Under the pieces are notes generated by a model. The model was not told the DNA's origin. It made no database searches and saw only the letters and a list, made by a program, of their open reading frames with translations. A stretch of DNA of 64,000 nucleotides, taken from IMG/VR virus record IMGVR_UViG_3300003323_000567, positions 62,035 to 126,034 of that record. The stretch is one strand, 5' to 3'. This stretch comes from a virus. Below, piece after piece: positions 4,080 through 56,301 of the stretch. The translations under genes and the position numbers were made by a program. The stretch's first letter is position 1. Each line of letters opens with the position of its first letter.

Positions 4080-4464
4080 GGTTCAAAGATTTTTTCAGCT
4101 CTAAAATCACTTTGCTCAACTCATAAGAAAACTTGTCCTGAAATTCCATAACATCTATTTCGAGCAAAGCTCCTTCCAGACCATCCAAAATCTGGTTTCT
4201 GAAGGTGGGAGTATAAGCTTGCCTCTCTTTAACGAAAGATAGACTTGCAATAAATCCCTTAGGGGTGAAAGACATAATAATGTGATCAGGCTTAATTGCT
4301 ACCCTGAGGTCTGTTGAGTCATATCCATCTCTAAGCCTGGTTATCAGCTTATTGTAGAATATACCTCTCAGCTCACTGGGAGCTATGGGTGCATTCACTT
4401 GTCTAACCACCCAATCACTGTAATCTATCAGGGCCCCGCTCAAAATAGTTGTGTGGTCAATCAT
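4051..4464 (-). CDS. hypothetical protein
   Basis: 137 aa ORF in gene run. Confidence 0.6.
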   Translation of the reverse strand: MIDHTTILSGALIDYSDWVVRQVNAPIAPSELRGIFYNKLITRLRDGYDSTDLRVAIKPDHIIMSFTPKGFIASLSFVKERQAYTPTFRNQILDGLEGALLEIDVMEFQDKFSYELSKVILELKKSLNHGGKQISKY

Positions 4465-4465
4465 T

Positions 4466-4681
4466 TTACATGTTTTTGAATGAGGTTACCCACGACGTTA
4501 CATAGCCATGGTACTTATGTAAGAAGTCAATTTTACCCCTCGATTTGATACCCACATCTCCTTTGGCCAATGACCCAAAGAGCATGTAGACAATCTTTCT
4601 GTCCCGAGGGATCAGGAGATCTGACTTCTGGTTCAGCTGGTTTACAACTGTTTCCTCCTGGTAGTTTCGCTTTTTTGCCAT
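4466..4681 (-). CDS. hypothetical protein
   Basis: 71 aa ORF abutting the next gene. Confidence 0.6.
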   Translation of the reverse strand: MAKKRNYQEETVVNQLNQKSDLLIPRDRKIVYMLFGSLAKGDVGIKSRGKIDFLHKYHGYVTSWVTSFKNM

Positions 4682-6302: not shown

Positions 6303-6389
6303 ATTGATTTACCTCCTTTTTTAAAAGAGAACAGGGATTTCTCCCTGTCTCGTGTTGTGTCAGTGTTTGGGGTAATGGACACAGTGTAA

Positions 6390-6638
6390 CTATTTGTCAA
6401 ATTTCTTGTGCATTTCAAAATCCATGCTGTCCAGGGAATAATTAACTGAATGGAGTTCGCCATTGGGCCCTAAAAAGACAAGATAAGTCATCTCCCCTCT
6501 ACGTTGTTCCACAGTTTGTATAGGAGGAAACTTACTAAGATATTTGGACTTTGCCCTGTCATAGACAAAAGTGCTCCACAGGTTACAGAAGATTACTACA
6601 GTGGCCATTACGATGAATACAATATTAAATGTTCTCAT
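6390..6638 (-). CDS. N-terminally anchored membrane protein
   Basis: N-terminal hydrophobic segment. Confidence 0.55.
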   Translation of the reverse strand: MRTFNIVFIVMATVVIFCNLWSTFVYDRAKSKYLSKFPPIQTVEQRRGEMTYLVFLGPNGELHSVNYSLDSMDFEMHKKFDK

Positions 6639-20075: not shown

Positions 20076-20480
20076 ATGAGTAAATTCACAGATGACTTTT
20101 TTGCCTTTCCTATTAAGGTGTATGATGGCTTCTCTCTGAAGAAGGCCATGGATGAAGAGGATAAGGTAGGGACTGAAGCTCCTGTGCCAATTGACTGGGT
20201 AGCTGGATGGGTGAGGATACCTGTAAAGGATTTACCTAAGATGATGTGGCATGAGGGCTTTTCCAGGGAGAGAAGTGTAAAGGATGTGGCTGAGGAAGGC
20301 TTTGATCTGACTATTGTTATTACTGATAGTTATGGAGAGTTTGTGAGTACATGGCCAAGGAAGAAGTTCGAAGCTAAGCTGGATGACTTCATGGCTAAGT
20401 ATCAGACCAGGGCAAAGGACTATCTATCAAGCCCGAACCCCCATATTCTCGTTCAATCTATATCCCCTGAGGGACAATAG
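20076..20480 (+). CDS. hypothetical protein
   Basis: Start MSKFTDD chosen downstream of the promoter (ORF track 20004..20480). Confidence 0.65.
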   Translation: MSKFTDDFFAFPIKVYDGFSLKKAMDEEDKVGTEAPVPIDWVAGWVRIPVKDLPKMMWHEGFSRERSVKDVAEEGFDLTIVITDSYGEFVSTWPRKKFEAKLDDFMAKYQTRAKDYLSSPNPHILVQSISPEGQ

Positions 20481-20490
20481 AGAAAATAAA

Positions 20491-20522
20491 TTTGGAGAAT
20501 TGAAATCTTGGATCTATATTTG
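20491..20522 (+). promoter_or_regulatory. promoter of tRNA operon 1
   Basis: TTTG(20491)-20 nt-TATATTTG(20515). Confidence 0.85.
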
Positions 20523-20549
20523 CAGGATAAAATCTAAACAAAGAAGAAA

Positions 20550-20630
20550 ATGTACTATTCAATAGTGGATAATGGGATCATGAGAGGCGCAGAGAAATCT
20601 GCTCCAGGGGTCTCTTTGTCTACTATGTAA
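20550..20630 (+). CDS. attenuator leader peptide 1 (MYYSIVDNGIMRGAEKSAPGVSLSTM)
   Basis: 26 aa uORF between promoter and terminator; codons 5-16 match the tRNAs of operon 1. Confidence 0.8.
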   Translation: MYYSIVDNGIMRGAEKSAPGVSLSTM

Positions 20631-20652
20631 TTGATAAACAAGTAGTTAACCA

Positions 20653-20695
20653 AGATCCCTGGAGCACCAAAGAGCTCTGGGGATTTTTGCTTTAT
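20653..20695 (+). terminator. intrinsic terminator/attenuator 1
   Basis: atccctggagc-loop-gctctggggat plus T-tract; 5' arm also complementary to 20600-20613. Confidence 0.85.
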
Positions 20696-20766
20696 GCCCT
20701 CATAGCTTAATGGTAGAGCTCGAACCTTTTAAGTTTGAGATCCAAGTTCGATCCTTGGTGGGGGTA
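20696..20766 (+). tRNA. tRNA-Lys(TTT)
   Basis: Cloverleaf GCCCTCA/TGGGGGT; loop CTTTTAA. Confidence 0.85.
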
Positions 20767-20775
20767 CAGAAATAT

Positions 20776-20846
20776 TCCCTTGTAGCTCTAAGGTAGAGTA
20801 GATGACTCTTAATCATCGGGCGAAGGTTCGATTCCTTCCAGGGGAA
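20776..20846 (+). tRNA. tRNA-Lys(CTT)
   Basis: TCCCTTG/CAGGGGA; GATGA-CTCTTAA-TCATC. Confidence 0.9.
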
Positions 20847-20847
20847 C

Positions 20848-21024
20848 ATGGCAACTAAAGATAAGAAAATCAGGAAGCTGAAGGACAGGATAGAGAAGAT
20901 GGAAGCAGATATGTATAAAGAGTTGAGACAAAAGACATCTTCAACTGCAGAGATCAGCGTACATAAGTATCAAGCCAGATTGGCTCAAATGCATCTGGAG
21001 CTTCGGGAACTCGAAAAGAAATAG
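20848..21024 (+). CDS. 58 aa coiled-coil protein inside tRNA operon 1
   Basis: MATKDKKIRKLKDRIEKMEADMYKELRQKTSSTAEISVHKYQARLAQMHLELRELEKK (manual translation). Confidence 0.6.
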   Translation: MATKDKKIRKLKDRIEKMEADMYKELRQKTSSTAEISVHKYQARLAQMHLELRELEKK

Positions 21025-21025
21025 T

Positions 21026-21232
21026 ATGAAGATTACGTTTCAAGAGATGGCTCTAAGGGGTAAAGAGATCTTGTCTAGGCAGGGGCCTGTTACATTAGAG
21101 CAGGCTAGGGAGCAAGTAGAAAGACTTAAGAAGAATTCAAAATGCTCCATAGCACAGGGGTTGAGTGCATCTGCCTTACAAGCAGTCGACCTTGGTTCGA
21201 GTCCAAGTGGAGCAACCCAAAAGGAGTTATAG
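21026..21232 (+). CDS. small protein whose frame runs through tRNA-Val
   Basis: ATG directly after the previous stop; first ~39 codons look like protein, the rest overlap the tRNA. Confidence 0.4.
   Translation: MKITFQEMALRGKEILSRQGPVTLEQAREQVERLKKNSKCSIAQGLSASALQAVDLGSSPSGATQKEL
21143..21215 (+). tRNA. tRNA-Val(TAC)
   Basis: TGCTCCA/TGGAGCA; loop CTTACAA. Confidence 0.85.
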
Positions 21233-21294
21233 CTCAATGAATAGAGCCTCTGCCTTCTAAGCAGATTATCAAGGTTTGATTCCTTGTAACTCCT
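21223..21294 (+). tRNA. tRNA-Arg(TCT)
   Basis: GGAGTTA/TAACTCC; TCTGC-CTTCTAA-GCAGA. Confidence 0.9.
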
Positions 21295-21384
21295 CAGGTC
21301 TGTTTCCAGCTTCAGCGTGGAGTACAAAAGTTGGGGTTTTCAACTGCAGTGTATTACTTTCCATAAAGTGATCTCCTGCAGCCA

Positions 21385-21456
21385 GGACAGTTAGCTCAGA
21401 GGAAGAGCAAAGAGCTGTTAACTCTTAGGCCGGGATTTCGAAATTCCCACTGTCCT
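21385..21456 (+). tRNA. tRNA-Asn(GTT)
   Basis: GGACAGT/ACTGTCC; AAGAG-CTGTTAA-CTCTT. Confidence 0.9.
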
Positions 21457-21457
21457 C

Positions 21458-21745
21458 ATGAAAGAATATCTGTTGAGTATAGGTTTTGAACAGAAGTTAC
21501 CTTGGCAGTTTCACACTGATTCTTACATGGTAACTGAACTTGAAGAAGATTCCAACTCCATACCCCTCTGGAGCATCACAAATAAGAGGTATGATGAAAA
21601 AGTTTTCAGAGGAAGAATAAGGAGTGTTGAAGAGTTTAAGCAGATCTTTATGCTTGTGAAAGAGGATTATGACTTGACACAGGATGAAATAAGTTGGGCA
21701 ACAGCTATAAGAGGTAATGAAGAATTAAATAAGATTGCGGGGTAG
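21458..21745 (+). CDS. hypothetical protein inside tRNA operon 1
   Basis: 95 aa ORF filling the gap between tRNA-Asn and tRNA-Met. Confidence 0.65.
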   Translation: MKEYLLSIGFEQKLPWQFHTDSYMVTELEEDSNSIPLWSITNKRYDEKVFRGRIRSVEEFKQIFMLVKEDYDLTQDEISWATAIRGNEELNKIAG

Positions 21746-21809
21746 ACTGGAGAGGTGCCAGCTCAGTCTCATAAGCTGAATGACATGGGTTCGATTCCCA
21801 TCCCCGCAA
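21736..21809 (+). tRNA. tRNA-Met(CAT)
   Basis: TGCGGGG/CCCCGCA; TCAGT-CTCATAA-GCTGA. Confidence 0.8.
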
Positions 21810-21877
21810 CTAATCAGGTCTCCCACCCTGGTCCAGAGGGAGAGCAATGGGGCACTTGGGGACTGCCTACCTGATAT

Positions 21878-21948
21878 GCATCACAAGCATTGTGACGATG
21901 CTCCATCCTTCCAAGTTGGAGAGCAGGGTTTGATTCCCTGGTGGTGCT
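21878..21948 (+). tRNA. tRNA-Gly(TCC)
   Basis: GCATCAC/GTGGTGC; loop CTTCCAA; U73. Confidence 0.8.
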
Positions 21949-21949
21949 C

Positions 21950-22177
21950 ATGGATAAGAATGAAGTAAAGAAGAGATTATATAAGGAAAACCCAGGTGCA
22001 ATCTTACTGGAGGTAAGAGCAGATGGTATGTTATACCAAGCTCTCTTTAAAGGGGATGATGGGTTACCTGATATAAACCAAAAAGTAAAATTCCTTGTTC
22101 CCTTAGGGGAAATAGGAGAAGTAGTATGGAATAGGATAATGGATGCTAAATTATTAATAAGATGGTTACAAGATTAA
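21950..22177 (+). CDS. hypothetical protein inside tRNA operon 1
   Basis: MDKNEVKKRLYKENP...FLVPLGEIGE...MDAKLLIRWL. Confidence 0.65.
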   Translation: MDKNEVKKRLYKENPGAILLEVRADGMLYQALFKGDDGLPDINQKVKFLVPLGEIGEVVWNRIMDAKLLIRWLQD

Positions 22178-22195
22178 AAGAAGGTGAGGAGCTAT

Positions 22196-22268
22196 GCTCC
22201 CATCGTCTAATCGGTTAGGACGTTACTCTTTCAAGGTAAAAACGAGGGATCATAACCCTCTGGGAGTA
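22196..22268 (+). tRNA. tRNA-Glu(TTC)
   Basis: GCTCCCA/TGGGAGT; loop CTTTCAA; atypical T loop ATCATAA. Confidence 0.8.
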
Positions 22269-22366
22269 CAACATATTTAAGCTACATTGCGGACAAATGC
22301 TCTTAACTGAGCTGAGACCTGATAGGTTTCATACAGCAATTTGTCTGTCCGCCATGTGGCTAGTTC

Positions 22367-22436
22367 GAGGGTGTGGTGTAATGGTTGCATAACATCTTGT
22401 CACGGTGCAGGTTGGGGTTCGAGCCCCCCACTCTCG
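22367..22436 (+). tRNA. tRNA-Asp(GTC)
   Basis: GAGGGTG/CACTCTC; loop TTGTCAC; G73. Confidence 0.85.
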
Positions 22437-22444
22437 ACTTAAAT

Positions 22445-22520
22445 CGGCTCATAGTTTAAGAGGTCAAAACTCCCGACTCATAATCGGATGTTCCCAGATC
22501 ATGGCTGGGTGAGCCAACCA
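22445..22520 (+). tRNA. tRNA(CAT), probably Ile2 (lysidine type)
   Basis: CGGCTCA/TGAGCCA plus ACCA; anticodon arm CGA-CTCATAA-TCG as I recall for bacterial Ile2; ATA codon present in leader 1. The C1:A72 mismatch means an initiator identity cannot be excluded. Confidence 0.65.
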
Positions 22521-22602
22521 ATCTTGAGGGTGCATGTCCCTCAGGGACAACTAGAGGATAAAGTGGGGGAGGGTAAGAACCCCCTCTCCCCCTTTATCAA
22601 AT

Positions 22603-22674
22603 TGCCTGGTAACTCAGTGGTAGAGTGCCTCTCTGATACGGAGTGAGTGGATAGTTCGATTCTATCTCAGGCAA
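22603..22674 (+). tRNA. tRNA-Ile(GAT)
   Basis: TGCCTGG/TCAGGCA; loop CTGATAC. Confidence 0.85.
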
Positions 22675-22738
22675 CAGTAGGGACAGCTAAGTAACTGGAA
22701 GGGATGAAAGTTAGCCTTCGGGTTCTGTCCAAACACCA

Positions 22739-22812
22739 GGGGTTACATGTACCAAGGTTGGCGAGGGATCCTTGCAAGATCTCTGAGAAGAGTTCGATTC
22801 TCTTTAGCTCCA
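22739..22812 (+). tRNA. tRNA-Ala(TGC)
   Basis: GGGGTTA/TAGCTCC with G3:U70; loop CTTGCAA. Confidence 0.85.
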
Positions 22813-22820
22813 CAGATTTA

Positions 22821-22852
22821 TTTGGAAATCTCAAAAAGACTTCCTACATTTG
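22821..22852 (+). promoter_or_regulatory. promoter of tRNA operon 2
   Basis: TTTG(22821)-20 nt-TACATTTG(22845). Confidence 0.85.
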
Positions 22853-22859
22853 CAACATC

Positions 22860-22928
22860 ATGACAAAAGTATTATCATATTCCAGTCTATATCTCTTGAT
22901 CAAAGATCGAGCTGGGATGGTTATATAG
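22860..22928 (+). CDS. attenuator leader peptide 2 (MTKVLSYSSLYLLIKDRAGMVI)
   Basis: 22 aa uORF; codons 5-13 encode only Leu/Ser/Tyr, the amino acids of operon 2. Confidence 0.8.
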   Translation: MTKVLSYSSLYLLIKDRAGMVI

Positions 22929-22950
22929 TTTTTTTTGAAACCGTGGAGGT

Positions 22951-22986
22951 GCCCCAGCTTTTCTAGGCTGGGGTTTTTTGTTTTTA
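22951..22986 (+). terminator. intrinsic terminator/attenuator 2
   Basis: gccccagctt-ttct-aggctggggt plus T-tract; 5' arm complementary to 22909-22916. Confidence 0.85.
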
Positions 22987-22987
22987 T

Positions 22988-23060
22988 ACCTTGGTAGCCC
23001 AACGGAAGAGGCAGTAGTCTTAGGAACTACACAGTGTGGGTTCGAATCCCACCCTCGGTA
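22988..23060 (+). tRNA. tRNA-Leu(TAG), short variable arm
   Basis: GTAGT-CTTAGGA-ACTAC; T arm GTGGG-TTCGAAT-CCCAC; two acceptor mismatches. Confidence 0.75.
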
Positions 23061-23145
23061 CATGTTTATAATTTGTTTTGGAGAGTGTATGTGGCTAGTA
23101 GAGTTCAATGGACTGACTACTAATTGGTTATGCAGATTGGTATAA

Positions 23146-23220
23146 GTCCCTGTGATGTAATTAGGTAACCATACCAGACTTAAAATCTGGGTTTTGTAGG
23201 TTCAAGTCCTACCAGGGATA
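23146..23220 (+). tRNA. tRNA-Leu(TAA), short variable arm
   Basis: GTCCCTG/CAGGGAT; CCAGA-CTTAAAA-TCTGG. Confidence 0.85.
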
Positions 23221-23225
23221 CATAA

Positions 23226-23311
23226 GGAAGGTAGCACGGGATGCTCTGTAACTAGTCTTGAAAACTAGGCCAACGTGAAGAGCGTTGATGGTTGGACTCC
23301 ATTACCTTCCT
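23226..23311 (+). tRNA. tRNA-Ser(TGA)
   Basis: GGAAGGT/ACCTTCC; CTAGT-CTTGAAA-ACTAG; long variable arm CAACG/CGTTG. Confidence 0.8.
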
Positions 23312-23318
23312 CATATAA

Positions 23319-23402
23319 GGAGAGCAAACCTAAGAAGCCTTAGGAGCAGACTGCTAATCTGACTGTCCCTTAGGGGATGTGGATCGAGACCACTACTCTC
23401 CT
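23319..23402 (+). tRNA. tRNA-Ser(GCT)
   Basis: GGAGAG/CTCTCC; CAGA-CTGCTAA-TCTG; long variable arm. Confidence 0.8.
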
Positions 23403-23407
23403 CATAT

Positions 23408-23478
23408 TGAGTGGATGCCAGGGCAGCAGGCAATGTCTGTAAAACATAGGCACTAGGGTTCGAGTCCCTACCACTCAA
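23408..23478 (+). tRNA. tRNA-Tyr(GTA), short variable arm
   Basis: TGAGTGG/CCACTCA; ATGT-CTGTAAA-ACAT. Confidence 0.8.
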
Positions 23479-23484
23479 CTTTTA

Positions 23485-23516
23485 TTTGGTAGTCTCAAAT
23501 AACTACCATATATTTG
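23485..23516 (+). promoter_or_regulatory. promoter of tRNA operon 3
   Basis: TTTG(23485)-20 nt-TATATTTG(23509). Confidence 0.85.
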
Positions 23517-23520
23517 CATC

Positions 23521-23601
23521 ATGAATAAAGTATTTCGTCATACGTGGTTTACCTGTCAGCCTACTCAACCAGTGGGAAGGGGTGATGTCATGTATGATTA
23601 G
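23521..23601 (+). CDS. attenuator leader peptide 3 (MNKVFRHTWFTCQPTQPVGRGDVMYD)
   Basis: 26 aa uORF; codons 5-17 encode only F,R,H,T,W,C,Q,P, the amino acids of operon 3. Confidence 0.8.
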   Translation: MNKVFRHTWFTCQPTQPVGRGDVMYD

Positions 23602-23622
23602 AATATAAAGTTCTTGCATGCC

Positions 23623-23660
23623 AACCCCCTTTCTAACCAGATTGGGGGTTTTTCTTTTTA
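23623..23660 (+). terminator. intrinsic terminator/attenuator 3
   Basis: aaccccc...gggggtt plus T-tract; 5' arm complementary to 23573-23582. Confidence 0.8.
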
Positions 23661-23661
23661 T

Positions 23662-23733
23662 CTAGTTGTAGCCTAGAGGCCAGGCACTTGCTTTGGGAGC
23701 AAGATGACGCTAGTTCGATCCTAGCCAGCTAGA
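23662..23733 (+). tRNA. tRNA-Pro(TGG)
   Basis: CTAGTTG/CAGCTAG; CTTGC-TTTGGGA-GCAAG. Confidence 0.9.
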
Positions 23734-23738
23734 CATAC

Positions 23739-23812
23739 TCCAGATATGCTTTGATGGTGAAGCGCCTGTCTTGTAAACAGGAATAGAGAGTGTTCGAGTC
23801 ACTCATCTGGAT
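23739..23812 (+). tRNA. tRNA-Thr(TGT)
   Basis: TCCAGAT/ATCTGGA; CCTGT-CTTGTAA-ACAGG. Confidence 0.85.
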
Positions 23813-23817
23813 CATTT

Positions 23818-23890
23818 GGTGCTCAAGCAATTGTGGTCAATGCACCTGTCTGAAGAGCAGGCAAACTCAGTTCGATCCTGAGGGGTACCA
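23818..23890 (+). tRNA. tRNA-Phe(GAA)
   Basis: GGTGCTC/GGGTACC; CCTGT-CTGAAGA-GCAGG. Confidence 0.85.
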
Positions 23891-23897
23891 CTTATAA

Positions 23898-23969
23898 TGC
23901 CCTTTAGCACAATGGTAGTGCGTGAGTCTTTGGTCCTCATTATGTAAGGTTCGATTCCTACAGGGGCAT
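23898..23969 (+). tRNA. tRNA-Gln(TTG)
   Basis: TGCCCTT/AGGGGCA; loop CTTTGGT. Confidence 0.8.
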
Positions 23970-23971
23970 CT

Positions 23972-24044
23972 GTGGAGATACCAATTCGGTGAATGGGCTT
24001 GGCTGTGAACCAGGTAAGGCAGTTCGACTCTGCACTCCACCCCA
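23972..24044 (+). tRNA. tRNA-His(GTG)
   Basis: GTGGAG/CTCCAC, C73, CCA; CTTGG-CTGTGAA-CCAGG. Confidence 0.8.
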
Positions 24045-24115
24045 CTACCCTTCGTTCAAAGGAAGGACTTGAAGCTACGAACTTCAGGATATAGGTTCGA
24101 ATCCTATAGGGTAGT
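24045..24115 (+). tRNA. tRNA-Arg(ACG)
   Basis: CTACCCT/AGGGTAG; TGAAG-CTACGAA-CTTCA. Confidence 0.9.
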
Positions 24116-24118
24116 CAT

Positions 24119-24189
24119 ACATCTCTCAGGCCATGGGGGCCAAACAGTCTCCAAAACTGCAGGATAAGGTTCGATTCCTTAGAGGGGTG
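24119..24189 (+). tRNA. tRNA-Trp(CCA)
   Basis: CAGT-CTCCAAA-ACTG; T arm TAAGG-TTCGATT-CCTTA; 5' end uncertain by 2 nt. Confidence 0.8.
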
Positions 24190-24196
24190 CCGATAA

Positions 24197-24270
24197 GGCC
24201 AATTCGCCAAGTGGCAAGGCCGAGGCTTGCAAACCCTCTATCACCTGTTCGATTCAGGTATTGGCCTCCA
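24197..24270 (+). tRNA. tRNA-Cys(GCA)
   Basis: GGCCAAT/ATTGGCC, U73, CCA; loop TTGCAAA. Confidence 0.9.
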
Positions 24271-24305
24271 GGATCCTCTCTAATGAGAGGATTTTTGCTT
24301 TTTAT
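24271..24305 (+). terminator. terminator closing the tRNA array
   Basis: atcctctc-taat-gagaggat plus T-tract. Confidence 0.8.
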
Positions 24306-24377
24306 GGCATTAAGTCCCAGATACTTACATATTACTTCAAAAAAGGTCGTTAACTTTGTAAAAGAAAACCAAGCTAC

Positions 24378-24737
24378 ATGAAGGTAATTGTGCAGAAAAT
24401 ACGGAGAGAGGTAGCTTCTGACGTGGAAAAGGCAATAAGGTATTATTCTGTACTCCTTGCTCTGAATCAAGTTAAGCTTCCACAGAAGCAGCTATATCTA
24501 TTGGCATTCACTGCAGCCCGAGGGAGTATAACATCTCCTGCTGCAAGAAAGGAATTTGTAGAGATGTTTGATAGTTCCCTGGCATCTTTGGAGAACATGA
24601 AGCAAGAACTTGTTAAGTCTGGTTTTCTGGTCCAAACTGACATGAAGTATAGAGTTAATCCAAGCATTGCTCTGGATTTCTCAAAGGATATACAATTACA
24701 GATAAACCTAAAGGGAAGTGAAAAAGACCCAAGATAG
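24378..24737 (+). CDS. putative winged-HTH DNA-binding protein
   Basis: SLASLENMKQELVKSGFLVQ...YRVNP. Confidence 0.55.
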   Translation: MKVIVQKIRREVASDVEKAIRYYSVLLALNQVKLPQKQLYLLAFTAARGSITSPAARKEFVEMFDSSLASLENMKQELVKSGFLVQTDMKYRVNPSIALDFSKDIQLQINLKGSEKDPR

Positions 24738-25098
24738 TATAGCAACAGACAAGCTGAAAGCTGTATTAGTTACAAGGACTGCTATAAAGACTCTTGTTCC
24801 AGAAGACATAGTAGAGAAAGTTATAATGTTCCAGTTCAAGGATGCAAGAGATGCAATGACAGAACATGAGCAGGTGGAGATAACAGGCTTTGGAAAATTT
24901 ATGACCTCCCCTAATAAGCTCAAAAACCAAATACACAAACTGGAAGAGACACTCAAAAGCATGGAGGCAAAGTTCAGAGATAGGCCTAATGAAATCCCGG
25001 CAAGAAGATTAGCAGTCTGGGAAAAGCTCACAGAAGCCATAGAAGTTGAACTTGCTTGCCTAAAAACCAAAAAGGGGGGATATGAAAGTAAGCCTTAA
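24718..25098 (+). CDS. HU/IHF-like protein
   Basis: EKVIMFQF...EQVEITGFGKF. Confidence 0.6.
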   Translation: MKKTQDSIATDKLKAVLVTRTAIKTLVPEDIVEKVIMFQFKDARDAMTEHEQVEITGFGKFMTSPNKLKNQIHKLEETLKSMEAKFRDRPNEIPARRLAVWEKLTEAIEVELACLKTKKGGYESKP

Positions 25099-54800: not shown

Positions 54801-56301
54801 AAGCAAATTTGAGCAGCTCAAATTCAATGCTGGAAAAGTAATGATGCAGGGGGGACAAATGGGAATGGCTGATCTTGCCTCAAAGAAAGAGAAGCTTGCT
54901 TCCCTACAAAGAGCTATGCTTGATATGGCTGAGCAGCATGGTCTTGATCCAAATGCAATGTCACAGGGAAAGATGAAGAAAGCCAAGGGAGGTGCTTCAA
55001 TCCCTTTTTATCAAAATGGAGGGGATCCAGATCAAAATGATCCTACCAGAGCAGATAGAAATATGAATCCTGGTAATATCAAATATGGAACCTTTGCTAA
55101 GAAATATGGAGCCAAAAAAGACAAGGATGGGTTCGCCATATTTCCTTCGAAAGAAGTGGGAGAAAAGGCTATGAGAGATCTTTTTACTGGGGAGAACTAC
55201 AAGAATATGTCAGTTAGTGAGGCTATTAAAAAGTGGACTGGTGGACATCCTTATAGGTATGACTTAGGGCCTCTGACTGACAAAAAGGTGGCAGAACTAG
55301 GACCAGATGAACTGGATATAGTTATGTCAACAATGCAGAAAGGAGAAGGAACAAGATATGGAATTGGTCCTAGACCTCTTCCCGGAACTCCAAAAAATAC
55401 TCCAATTCCAGAGATATCTAACCCAGGACCATTTACTCCCTACACAATACCTGAAATGAGTGTGACTCCAGAGATTCCACAGACCAAACCTGTGAACCCT
55501 GAAGCTCCTTATGACAGGCTAAATGTGCCAAATAGAGGGAAGCTCCCAAGTAATGTGGAGGGCCTGAAGTTCAATCAGATCCTTCCTGAACTGTATGCAA
55601 TGGCAACCAACAAAGTTGAGCCAGTACCTGCACAAAGGTATGAGCCTCAATTATATACACCTTATCAGGTTAGTTTCCAGGATAGACTGAACCAAAATCA
55701 GGCAGCTTTCAACGCTCAAATGAGAGCCCTTGGGCCTTATAACCCTTCAGCAATGGGAACTTTGGCAGCTCAGAAATACCAGGCAGACCAGGCAGTTCTT
55801 GGAGACCAATTCAGAACAAATCAATCAATAGCCAATGATATTACTAACAAGAATATCGCTCTGGTAAATGATGCTAATCTGAAGAACTTAGGTTTAGCTG
55901 ATACTCAAATGGTTAGACAATCTCAGGCAAGATCCAATACCAAGGCTCTCAATCAAACAATTCTCAATAGCTTATCGAGCAAATATGCTCAAAATGATCT
56001 TGAGAATAAGAGACTTGCTGCCTATGAAAATCTGTATGATTACAGATTTGTACCAACAGAGGATGGTGGTCAACAAGCCACTTATTTCGGACCTAATGCA
56101 ATGTTCAACTATAGTGGTAGGAACACTACGGGACAGAAGGCTCAGGATGTCAGAACCATCAGTAGATATGATGCCCAGGGGAACCTAAAGGGATATAATG
56201 AGTACGATGAATCTGACCTAAGGGAGATGCAAAGAATCCTGGATATCCGTAATAAGCAGAACAAGATGGCTCTCACGCCACAGCTCTCTCCACTAAAATA
56301 A
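51883..56301 (+). CDS. large virion cargo polyprotein with GG-motif repeats and lysozyme-like domain
   Basis: Many xxxGG motifs; LPNHPTFS; HAQGGI...VEVEGGE; RNMNPGNI...FAIFPS. Confidence 0.65.
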   Translation: MAKKINKKKAPKAKAGYWLQVNPEKLTYENLPCVGCKDKLMAAAGMYMDPGPKIPGLAQSISDYYGGYPESDLSPSRVQGPVPIGTPPDTSKVKPGKPLGPEALQSPAKKQGQGYNAGNMALAAMTAFDAILPNRVSKQQVVQPQMAYNPMPYGYGSQALMQDGGSVPMPKTTLKPEQEKSYQEWRTKLPKNLQSEDNYNLRQLWLENPGIKPSANMHFPDKYKLPNHPTFSSESMYFNPTNQYMAGRWNETDSSWNYIPYNSQFKQPVVEMKKNGGFVPKADQGYYMGEDENNSPSAKNGKTMKSKKTKKYDDGGVAPALFGLMDTFYGELGNAKQGLLNAFTGGAGGGLPIPMALGGTLEDKLMEAKDGHWIQKAVNPAHKGYCTPMTKSTCTPRRKALAKTFKKMARNRKKDEGGFIQPGYDQYKEGGIIPDNMSIFSPHDYENGGNVNGGAKINMVDAKYPNTDLMEQWLLYEQGGNVNGGAKLREVGATYPNADLLEQWLLYANGGDLKPSAVKDSDNRMSLGGKKVKVYNTARERDVKYRDDGSALAPMSLVEYNPGYNANIPEPGYNPANLNPKTDYSVTFPQGSSQQTSYFPNYSAWNSFVNNNSNLLISSQERPGSGSAAFKNRPMEQGGNVNGGADIREVGANYPNTDLMEQWLLYKDGGTLSSDKAKEMLRDGTAHGKKLTKKQKQYFGMVAAGKAPTGTTLFGSGDPKPASPQVDQSHFSFGNTPIDRDALLADRIGEIIGNAYDPYSKEGRAVLSQIQTGWNNPQFASDLGVRIKSLQMDPTFQKLTPEQRITRFYETGATGTSGLDDFIRRSKHIGGNPAAYWQGNFANKQRMNRAIPTVTFEQGGVMYDDGGQIDTMWGGSADLESYNPYDGGTVEFNGDSHAQGGIGMAYNGNPVEVEGGEYASKDGDGNLTIYGNMLIPGTKTKFKKAASAIADREKRYDRLVTKGSDLVNGANPASKFEQLKFNAGKVMMQGGQMGMADLASKKEKLASLQRAMLDMAEQHGLDPNAMSQGKMKKAKGGASIPFYQNGGDPDQNDPTRADRNMNPGNIKYGTFAKKYGAKKDKDGFAIFPSKEVGEKAMRDLFTGENYKNMSVSEAIKKWTGGHPYRYDLGPLTDKKVAELGPDELDIVMSTMQKGEGTRYGIGPRPLPGTPKNTPIPEISNPGPFTPYTIPEMSVTPEIPQTKPVNPEAPYDRLNVPNRGKLPSNVEGLKFNQILPELYAMATNKVEPVPAQRYEPQLYTPYQVSFQDRLNQNQAAFNAQMRALGPYNPSAMGTLAAQKYQADQAVLGDQFRTNQSIANDITNKNIALVNDANLKNLGLADTQMVRQSQARSNTKALNQTILNSLSSKYAQNDLENKRLAAYENLYDYRFVPTEDGGQQATYFGPNAMFNYSGRNTTGQKAQDVRTISRYDAQGNLKGYNEYDESDLREMQRILDIRNKQNKMALTPQLSPLK

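Follow-up and report, generated by a model that had tools for sequence, protein, structure and literature searches.

How phages control their tRNA genes, and why some of them carry near-complete sets, is an open question. It is raised here by a stretch of 64,000 nt of viral DNA (hereafter the window), positions 62035–126034 of the 126-kb IMG/VR virus record IMGVR_UViG_3300003323_000567, which is rated complete. The window holds 25 tRNA genes in three blocks, whose amino-acid sets taken together comprise all 20. Each block is preceded by a Bacteroidota-type promoter, a short open reading frame (ORF) of 22–26 codons and an intrinsic terminator, and each ORF contains a run of codons for the amino acids of the tRNAs that follow it. 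From the sequence and from folding models we consider it likely, with good confidence, that these are three ribosome-mediated (leader-peptide) transcription attenuators, one per tRNA operon.

Organization of the three tRNA operons

ARAGORN reported 23 tRNAs on the + strand between 20696 and 24270, and Rfam tRNA matches span most of them. Two more genes were added to these. tRNA-Ala(TGC), at 22739–22813, was returned by ARAGORN with -ps90 only. Ser(GCT), at about 23320–23405, was missed by ARAGORN at every threshold tried and by Rfam at E<=1; it aligns with elements that ARAGORN names tRNA-Ser(gct) in relatives, and its anticodon loop is invariant. The count of 25 genes in three blocks covering all amino acids, as given in the initial annotation of this DNA, is thereby upheld.

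All three blocks lie on the + strand. Block 1 (20696–22813; ARAGORN, Rfam) encodes Lys(TTT), Lys(CTT), Val(TAC), Arg(TCT), Asn(GTT), Met(CAT), Gly(TCC), Glu(TTC), Asp(GTC), a CAT tRNA that is probably Ile2, Ile(GAT) and Ala(TGC), with small ORFs and non-tRNA inserts interspersed. Block 2 (22988–23479; ARAGORN, homology) encodes Leu(TAG), Leu(TAA), Ser(TGA), Ser(GCT), the latter assigned by homology only, and Tyr(GTA). Block 3 (23662–24270; ARAGORN, Rfam) encodes Pro(TGG), Thr(TGT), Phe(GAA), Gln(TTG), His(GTG), Arg(ACG), Trp(CCA) and Cys(GCA).

The promoters were located with the pattern TTTG-N17-23-TAnnTTTG (-33/-7 type), which has six matches on the + strand of the 64 kb, three of them at 20491, 22821 and 23485. 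Promoter 1 (20491–20522, + strand as all cassette features below) lies 27 nt 5′ of the ATG of leader ORF 1 (20550–20630, 26 codons). Only 7 nt separate the -7 box of promoter 2 (22821–22852) from the start codon of leader ORF 2 (22860–22928, 22 codons), a distance that implies a leaderless or near-leaderless transcript, and the -7 box of promoter 3 (23485–23516) is 4 nt from the start codon of leader ORF 3 (23521–23601, 26 codons). The ORFs are followed by terminator 1 (20652–20692; arms 20653–20665 and 20674–20686, then a T-run; its end is 9 nt from tRNA-Lys), terminator 2 (22951–22980; arms 22951–22960 and 22965–22974, then a T-run) and terminator 3 (23623–23656; arms 23623–23634 and 23639–23650, then a T-run). 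In the window these are G+C-rich hairpins with a T-run ending 9–13 nt 5′ of the first tRNA. The order of promoter, ORF and terminator before each block thus stands as it was first annotated.

Leader codons and the tRNAs downstream

We defined the run of a leader as its longest stretch in which every residue is an amino acid of the downstream block. In leader 1 it covers codons 5–16 (20562–20597), 12 codons drawn only from the block 1 set {I,V,D,N,G,M,R,A,E,K} and including 10/10 of it; this putative sensor run doubles as segment 1, the 5′ strand, of the leader hairpin. In leader 2, codons 5–13 (22872–22898) are nine codons for {L,S,Y} only, with 3/3 covered and both Leu boxes and both Ser boxes sampled. 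In leader 3, codons 5–17 (23533–23571) are 13 codons restricted to {F,R,H,T,W,C,Q,P}, with 8/8 covered. At least one sensor codon is present for nearly every tRNA of the block. The match extends to the Arg isoacceptors: leader 1 carries AGA, and Arg(TCT) is in block 1; leader 3 carries CGT, and Arg(ACG) is in block 3.

These runs are rare among random peptides. In a Monte Carlo experiment using the protein composition of the window itself, a success being a run at least as long as that observed together with coverage of the whole set, we obtained 190 successes in 2,000,000 trials for leader 1, one in 300,000 for leader 2 and none in 300,000 for leader 3. The claim that a run from codon 5 holds only, and all, the amino acids of its block is sustained in all three leaders.

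Leaders and blocks across phages

The large terminase (TerL), portal and major head proteins of the window match PHROG families. By terminase, the nearest cultured phage is Leptolyngbya phage Lbo-JY46 (35% identity), followed at about 26% by Cellulophaga phages phi4:1 and phi17:2, Flavobacterium phages and crAss-like Bacteroides phages. The phage of the window is, as judged from its proteins, crAss-related, and its host very probably belongs to the Bacteroidota. Comparison of the window with GenBank phages at the DNA level gave matches of tRNA size only, and a scan of IMG/VR for homologues of an upstream 158-aa protein found none.

We collected related loci through TerL, which has 1041 relatives at E<=1e-20, 120 of them listed. 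With 10-kb flanks, 76 IMG/VR and 80 metagenome loci were examined; at least three tRNAs occur near TerL in 15 of these, two being duplicates. One further locus came from a pattern scan, three cultured phages were added from GenBank, and whole records were searched for tRNAs in 37 cases. A 14-base leader 3 pattern retrieved 72 loci from IMG/VR, with four genuine cassettes; the matches in L111, L125 and L140 were discarded as chance hits. In total we found 26 cassettes in 12 phages, including the cultured phi4:1 and Lbo-JY46 (23 by an automatic detector and three added by coordinates). The promoter-ORF-block layout is common to all 26. Leaders are 19–36 codons long, terminator hairpins range from -14.6 to -22.7 kcal/mol, and the terminator lies 6–17 nt from the first tRNA in 25 cassettes of the 26; in leader 1 of locus L052 the next ARAGORN tRNA is 83 nt off, with a degenerate Lys-like tRNA in between.

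The lengths of the runs against their own blocks sum to 277 with amino-acid sets from ARAGORN alone and to 293 with curated sets, in which five assignments come from degenerate tRNA-like sequences read by eye. When blocks were permuted among leaders the mean sums were 110–114 and the maxima 185–190, and 0/20,000 permutations reached the observed value. Within genomes, own runs measure 7–17 and mismatched runs 1–9. The run includes all amino acids of the block in 22 of the 26 cassettes (Met ignored). Block tRNAs can read 289/293 run codons if U34 is taken to read a whole family box, and 239 under strict wobble; conversely, the run holds a cognate codon for 189/200 tRNA genes. The isoacceptor match noted in the window holds as well, since in 15/15 instances the Arg codon family of the leader (CGN or AGR) corresponds to the Arg gene present in its block (Arg(ACG) or Arg(TCT)). 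ATA is found in 7/7 leaders of blocks holding Ile(GAT) and a CAT tRNA, and ATG in 2/7, from which one CAT tRNA per block is predicted to be Ile2.

Could such a match be a chance resemblance in AT-rich intergenic DNA? As a control, each of 1160 further small ORFs from these loci was given the longest run that it reached with any of the block sets. The 99th percentile of these control runs is 8, a length reached by 23/26 leaders; eight of the 1160 attain at least 10, with a maximum of 18, and to that extent they speak for chance. Class-1 sets hold half of all amino acids, which makes most of the long control runs possible, and run length alone is not extreme there. Against chance stand the Monte Carlo trials on the window, the block permutations, the other two frames of the same DNA in the 26 cassettes (mean runs of 2.4 and 2.5 versus 11.3 in frame) and the recurrence of the pattern in 12 phages; these controls refute it, and we give it practically no credence.

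Phages in which tRNAs have changed block are informative on the correspondence itself. L052 (TerL 36% identical) differs from the window in having its Asp and Asn genes in the Pro-headed block and Arg(ACG) in the first block. Its Asp and Asn codons stand in the leader of the Pro-headed block, with none in the leader 1 run, and the leader 1 run has both AGA and CGC. In Lbo-JY46 the Cys gene is in block 1, and Cys codons are found in leader 1 and not in leader 3. Two reduced blocks behave similarly: in L031 a three-tRNA block for Pro, Gln and His lies behind a six-codon run of exactly those three, and in L043 a Pro/Asp/Phe/Gln block lies behind a six-codon run of only those four. Finally, phi4:1 (TerL 26% identical) has 23–25 tRNAs in a partition wholly unlike that of the window, and its three leaders follow its own split. 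There an 11-codon run for exactly its six members precedes the block {P,E,Q,H,L,R}, a 16-codon run inside the set precedes {A,K,I,G,M,D,T,V,R}, and a 10-codon run for exactly its five members precedes {Y,S,N,W,F}. Leaders thus appear to track their own block, also where tRNAs (Asp and Asn, Cys, Arg-ACG) have moved between blocks. The covariation of leader codons with tRNA content, proposed at the outset as a test on related arrays, is seen in 12 phages, and no permuted control reaches the observed match.

Alternative pairings and stall geometry

Minimum free energy (MFE) folds of the three window leaders have the run region paired with the 3′ part of the ORF (1:2) and the terminator (3:4) formed. 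The ORF 3′ part contains the putative antiterminator strand (segment 2), at 20600–20614, 22908–22917 and 23573–23590 in leaders 1, 2 and 3, which has two possible partners, segment 1 and the terminator 5′ arm; its duplex with the arm has energies of -25.5, -14.8 and -15.0 kcal/mol. The two alternative partners proposed at the outset for the ORF 3′ part are thus borne out by folding. The distance between stop codon and terminator 5′ arm over the cassettes (18–36 nt) implies that a terminating ribosome would cover the antiterminator strand and not the terminator.

We then compared these pairings between cassettes. The ORF 3′ part pairs with its own terminator 5′ arm (2:3) at a mean of -16.3 kcal/mol versus -9.7 with the arms of other cassettes; its own arm is the best partner in 14/26 rows, and 0/20,000 permutations reach the observed 2:3 sum. 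Similarly, the 1:2 duplex has a mean of -22.9 kcal/mol for own and -15.0 for mismatched partners, again matched by 0/20,000 permutations. A MAFFT alignment of six class-1 cassettes, with so few sequences, serves as supporting evidence only: 76% of the cells of the 14 antiterminator pairs taken from the window are paired, versus 47% and 63% with the partner slid by one column, both-sided changes occur in 6/14 pairs (a level reached by 14/500 shuffles), and the terminator is paired in 90% of cells. The antiterminator therefore appears to co-evolve with its own terminator.

This bears on whether the ORFs might simply encode functional micropeptides, the adjoining hairpins being ordinary terminators of the upstream gene. 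One leader ORF, phi4:1 gp075, is indeed annotated in GenBank as a hypothetical protein. Micropeptides would explain neither why the ORF 3′ part is complementary to the arm of its own terminator nor why every cassette has its own promoter; moreover, it is the composition and not the peptide sequence that is conserved, and versions of leader 2 vary in order and length. We consider this explanation very unlikely.

The effect of a ribosome was modelled by masking from 15 nt 5′ to 9 or 12 nt 3′ of the first base of the A-site codon and refolding. In a kinetic variant the transcript was truncated just before the terminator 3′ arm, the state in which the decision falls. Without a ribosome, the terminator has a probability of 0.94, 0.97 and 0.96 in leaders 1, 2 and 3. 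At equilibrium, placing the A site on codons 5–14 of leader 1 or 9–14 of leader 3 lowers the terminator to <=0.07 and brings the antiterminator to 0.78–0.93; in leader 1, where the terminator stood at 0.94, the antiterminator takes over at 0.83–0.93 throughout codons 5–14. In truncated transcripts the antiterminator stays at about 0.8–0.9 until codon 14–15, 13–14 and 16 of leaders 1, 2 and 3 and then collapses, limits that agree with the ends of the runs (codons 16, 13 and 17) to one or two codons. Stall geometry fits in part: it agrees for all three leaders in the kinetic model and for leader 1 and codons 9–14 of leader 3 at equilibrium, and disagrees for leader 2 at equilibrium.

The same comparison was extended to the other cassettes by taking the last A-site codon that still allows the antiterminator, derived from structure alone, as the end of the permissive range. 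This end and that of the run are <=2 codons apart in 24/25 cassettes computed (Pearson r 0.73, p 3e-5). The sole outlier is leader 1 of L092, whose run is interrupted by one off-set Leu codon; in the 26th cassette (L005, ORF 7047), whose profile was read by eye, the values are 16 and 16.

These results can be set against a more general possibility, in which the short ORFs are translation-coupled switches for infection timing or for sensing host shut-off, with no codon specificity and a composition shaped by something else. Any leader-peptide attenuator would respond to a global slowing of translation too, and the fold logic itself needs no particular codons. Such a switch would leave unexplained that leader composition follows whichever tRNAs the block contains, even after tRNAs have relocated and in a distant phage whose tRNAs are partitioned differently, that the match reaches the Arg isoacceptors in 15/15 instances, and that the run ends where stalling ceases to be productive. 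We rate it as quite improbable.

Observations that weigh against attenuation

A number of observations, beside the long control runs and the assignments by eye already given, weigh against the three cassettes being attenuators with tRNA-matched sensors. Several come from the folds. At equilibrium, leader 2 favours the terminator for all ribosome positions (0.91–0.97), and antitermination is obtained for it in the kinetic model only; in leader 3 the antiterminator stays unfreed at equilibrium with the ribosome on codons 5–8. The antiterminator strand of the window leaders begins 2–10 nt past the last run codon, so that stalling at any of the final one to three codons of the run should leave it partly covered by the ribosome, a caveat that the initial annotation had raised and that applies. 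With start codons 7 and 4 nt past the -7 box, leaders 2 and 3 would require leaderless or near-leaderless initiation, and in Flavobacterium psychrophilum leaderless mRNAs amount to 5.5%, hence a minority mode there, according to the available text of PMC9723704. Translation of the leaders and its coupling to transcription are assumed throughout.

Others concern the match. Met is uncovered in 5/7 leaders of Ile-holding blocks. Off-set codons include the Leu codon inside the run of L092 leader 1, Thr, Cys and Ile codons before the matched run in the L043 leader, where no such tRNA lies downstream, and a Thr codon in leader C of phi4:1. Leader 2 of Lbo-JY46 has Tyr and AGT codons, and no Tyr or Ser(GCT) gene was detected there; one tRNA gene of the same phage is called Cys(ACA) or Val(TAC) according to the run of the program. 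The 26 cassettes are linked by descent and represent far fewer independent events, which we count as the phi4:1 partition, the L052 moves, the Cys move of Lbo-JY46 and the reduced blocks of L031 and L043. Lastly, no cassette was found in six related arrays (crAss001, L017, L018, L167, L168 and L173). In the well-studied crAss001 (MH675552.1, L231), positions 1640–1682 show a Bacteroidota-type promoter, a 4-codon ORF and the tRNA array, with no terminator; the promoter leads straight into the tRNAs, making this a syntenic array without an attenuator.

Comparison with known control systems

In enterobacteria, the thr leader senses Thr and Ile and the ilvGMEDA leader Ile, Val and Leu, and trpL and hisL follow the same logic. 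Like these and pheL, the phage cassettes have a short ORF whose control codons fall in segment 1, pairings (1:2, 2:3 and 3:4) that are mutually exclusive, and an intrinsic terminator ahead of the regulated genes, and the folds reproduce the same logic. They differ in that the target is tRNA genes and not biosynthetic enzymes, and that the sensor would sample from 3 to 10 or 11 amino acids, each once or twice, in place of runs of one to three. Signal and product would coincide in a direct feedback, the setting is viral, and leaders 2 and 3 of the window would begin at or almost at the 5′ end of their transcripts.

The pheM leader of pheST provides attenuation of an aminoacyl-tRNA synthetase operon by cognate codons. 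It resembles the phage cassettes in placing a gene of the translation machinery under a leader peptide and differs in its single amino acid, its protein product and its cellular context. Mycobacterial polycysteine short ORFs, which are leaderless, are reportedly amino-acid-responsive attenuators of downstream genes (bioRxiv 10.1101/834739); they share leaderless short ORFs with the phage leaders, and differ in responding to one amino acid and in having protein-coding targets. T-boxes, too, switch between terminator and antiterminator according to the state of a specific tRNA, but bind the uncharged tRNA directly, without ribosome or ORF. A cmscan of 20000–25000 at E<=1 detected no Rfam leader family and no T-box, only tRNA-clan and weak chance hits, and identity with a T-box or a known Rfam leader family was rejected for want of a covariance-model match at that threshold. 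E. coli pheV was likewise rejected as a precedent: in the K-12 record the tRNA comes right after a promoter, with neither leader ORF nor terminator.

The likeness to pheL is drawn from the description of that leader in the available text of PMC3082878. The features that define the attenuator class, namely an ORF between promoter and genes, control codons matched to the product, a terminator, and a competing antiterminator sequestered by the ORF 5′ part, are all found in the phage cassettes. Mechanistically these read as leader-peptide attenuators: every feature open to a sequence test is present, and stall geometry agrees in part.

In function, the phage arrays come closest to the tRNA L-array (trn operon) of Anabaena sp. 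PCC 7120, which is supernumerary, horizontally spread and silent until translation is impaired, according to the available text of PMC8421152. There, control is described as exerted by a repressor, TrcR, that binds direct repeats at the promoter (available texts of PMC8421152, PMC10272220); the main text of PMC8421152 uses none of the words leader, attenuat- and terminator. We therefore rejected the Anabaena array as an instance of the same mechanism, promoter repression contrasting with the terminator that stands between the -33/-7 promoter and the tRNAs in the phage.

Two reports lend plausibility, one to tRNA sensing and one to attenuation in this host phylum. In a pheR mutant of E. coli, which has lost one of two tRNA-Phe genes, a pheA attenuator reporter was derepressed 6- to 7-fold (available text of PMC3082878), and leader-peptide attenuators have been reported upstream of amino-acid operons in Flavobacterium psychrophilum (available text of PMC9723704), where leaderless mRNAs occur as well. 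The literature searched, whose scope left out most subscription papers and old scans, yielded no description of leader-peptide control of tRNA genes.

Proposed mechanism

The reading given in the initial annotation, attenuation with sensor codons that mirror the tRNAs downstream, has come through the chance controls, the fold geometry, the co-variation with the terminator and, decisively, the comparison across 12 phages. The anatomy and its statistical non-randomness are established, as are the exclusive pairings, which co-vary, and the correspondence by which leader codons change with tRNA content; from these we infer leader translation, its coupling to transcription and a response to tRNA shortage.

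The attenuators would work as follows. Transcription would start at the Bacteroidota-type promoter, and a ribosome would translate the short ORF while RNA polymerase proceeds. If all run codons are decoded fast, the ribosome would reach the ORF 3′ part or the stop codon and cover the antiterminator strand; the terminator would form and the tRNA genes would stay untranscribed. If no ribosome is present, the 5′ and 3′ parts of the ORF would pair with each other, and the terminator would form too. If a charged tRNA is scarce, the ribosome would be held on its codon in the run, leaving the ORF 3′ part free to pair with the terminator 5′ arm, and polymerase would read through into the block encoding that very tRNA. 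Once supply has risen the stall would vanish and the operon would shut, an on-demand product feedback on tRNA supply.

What would such devices sense? An attenuator of this kind cannot distinguish a missing from an uncharged tRNA. One answer is that they sense amino-acid starvation through uncharged tRNA, as in the trp, his and thr operons, and not the amount of tRNA, the tRNA operons being a starvation response. Levels of charged tRNA do drive the classical attenuators (established, and described in the available text of PMC3082878), and anatomy alone cannot separate uncharged from absent tRNA. On the other side, extra tRNA would give no relief of an amino-acid shortage, which would leave the match between codons and tRNA genes without a pay-off, and the leaders sample as many as 10 or 11 amino acids, each with one or two codons, versus the one-residue runs of starvation sensors; both arguments are matters of reasoning. 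A starvation response seems to us unlikely.

Another answer is that the leaders measure, codon by codon, how much usable tRNA the infected cell has. They would let the phage replace, block by block, tRNAs destroyed by host anticodon nucleases (candidates being PrrC, RloC and PARIS) or by its own shut-off, and pay only when needed. We advance this extension of the attenuator reading tentatively, as one possibility that may well prove wrong.

Further features of the arrays

A terminator closes the window array at 24270–24305 (+ strand; hairpin 24270–24295, then a T-run). In block 1, ORFs at 20848, 21458 and 21950 begin one base after the tRNA ends at 20847, 21457 and 21949; with ORF starts abutting tRNA 3′ ends, tRNA processing would release leaderless mRNAs, in a tRNA-punctuated arrangement. 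A similar junction is seen in L003 at about 5177, where an Asn tRNA is followed immediately by ATG. Five inter-tRNA stretches of 60–100 nt (21297–21384, 22270–22365, 22521–22602, 22676–22738 and 23062–23145) are neither ORF nor tRNA; some are G+C-rich and look structured, and no Rfam family was found in them at E<=1 beyond weak chance hits. Four Rfam tRNA hits lie outside the array on the opposite strand, three of them 95–108 nt long: two at window positions 10011–10118 and 11863–11967 (- strand) and two at G000:C1:51961–52018 and 55542–55636. ARAGORN with -ps90 places a SeC(tca)-like tRNA at 10010–10092.

The cultured phages and two other loci show variations in the surroundings of the leaders. 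In phi4:1 (NC_021788.1, L230), the 39-aa hypothetical protein gp075 of GenBank (87989–88108) is the second leader ORF; its annotated start falls inside the promoter, a GTG at record position 88025 fitting the transcript better, and the other two leaders are unannotated. With that start, the three phi4:1 leaders occupy record positions 87065–87133, 88025–88108 and 89771–89869. In Lbo-JY46 (PP438436.1, L229), TTTG/TAnnTTTG promoters of the Bacteroidota type lie at locus positions 551, 4114 and 4843, the terminase is crAss-related, and none of the three leader ORFs is annotated. This phage is reported on a cyanobacterium, so that either Bacteroidota-type promoters work there or the productive host deserves a second look. 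In L031 (185–313, 42 aa) and L005 (6010–6445, a longer gene), a coding ORF stands between promoter and leader ORF, which would place the attenuator inside the mRNA and not at its 5′ end.

Degenerate tRNA-like genes were recognized by their anticodon loop in L052 at 4352–4425 (Lys) and 6385–6455 (Gln), in L151 at about 958–1030 (Cys) and in the phi4:1 slice at 4475–4549 (Cys). All four were missed or left unnamed by ARAGORN, yet each is predicted by the leader peptide.

Implications for phage tRNA operons

Expression of each operon would hinge on a test peptide composed of the amino acids that its own tRNAs carry, a control element that itself states what it measures. If this is true, attenuation is extended in the breadth of its sensor (from one to three up to 10 or 11 amino acids), in its target (from enzymes to tRNA genes) and to a direct product feedback on the translation apparatus, and the leaders would constitute a natural modular sensor of individual tRNA availability. 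As an aid to annotation, a leader predicts the tRNA content of its block, including degenerate tRNAs missed by gene finders. The idea can be tested at the bench, since two cultured phages, phi4:1 and Lbo-JY46, carry cassettes. Should the leaders indeed gauge the usable tRNA pool, the split of amino acids among blocks would reflect which tRNAs fail together, and large phages infecting several host phyla may commonly carry the device.

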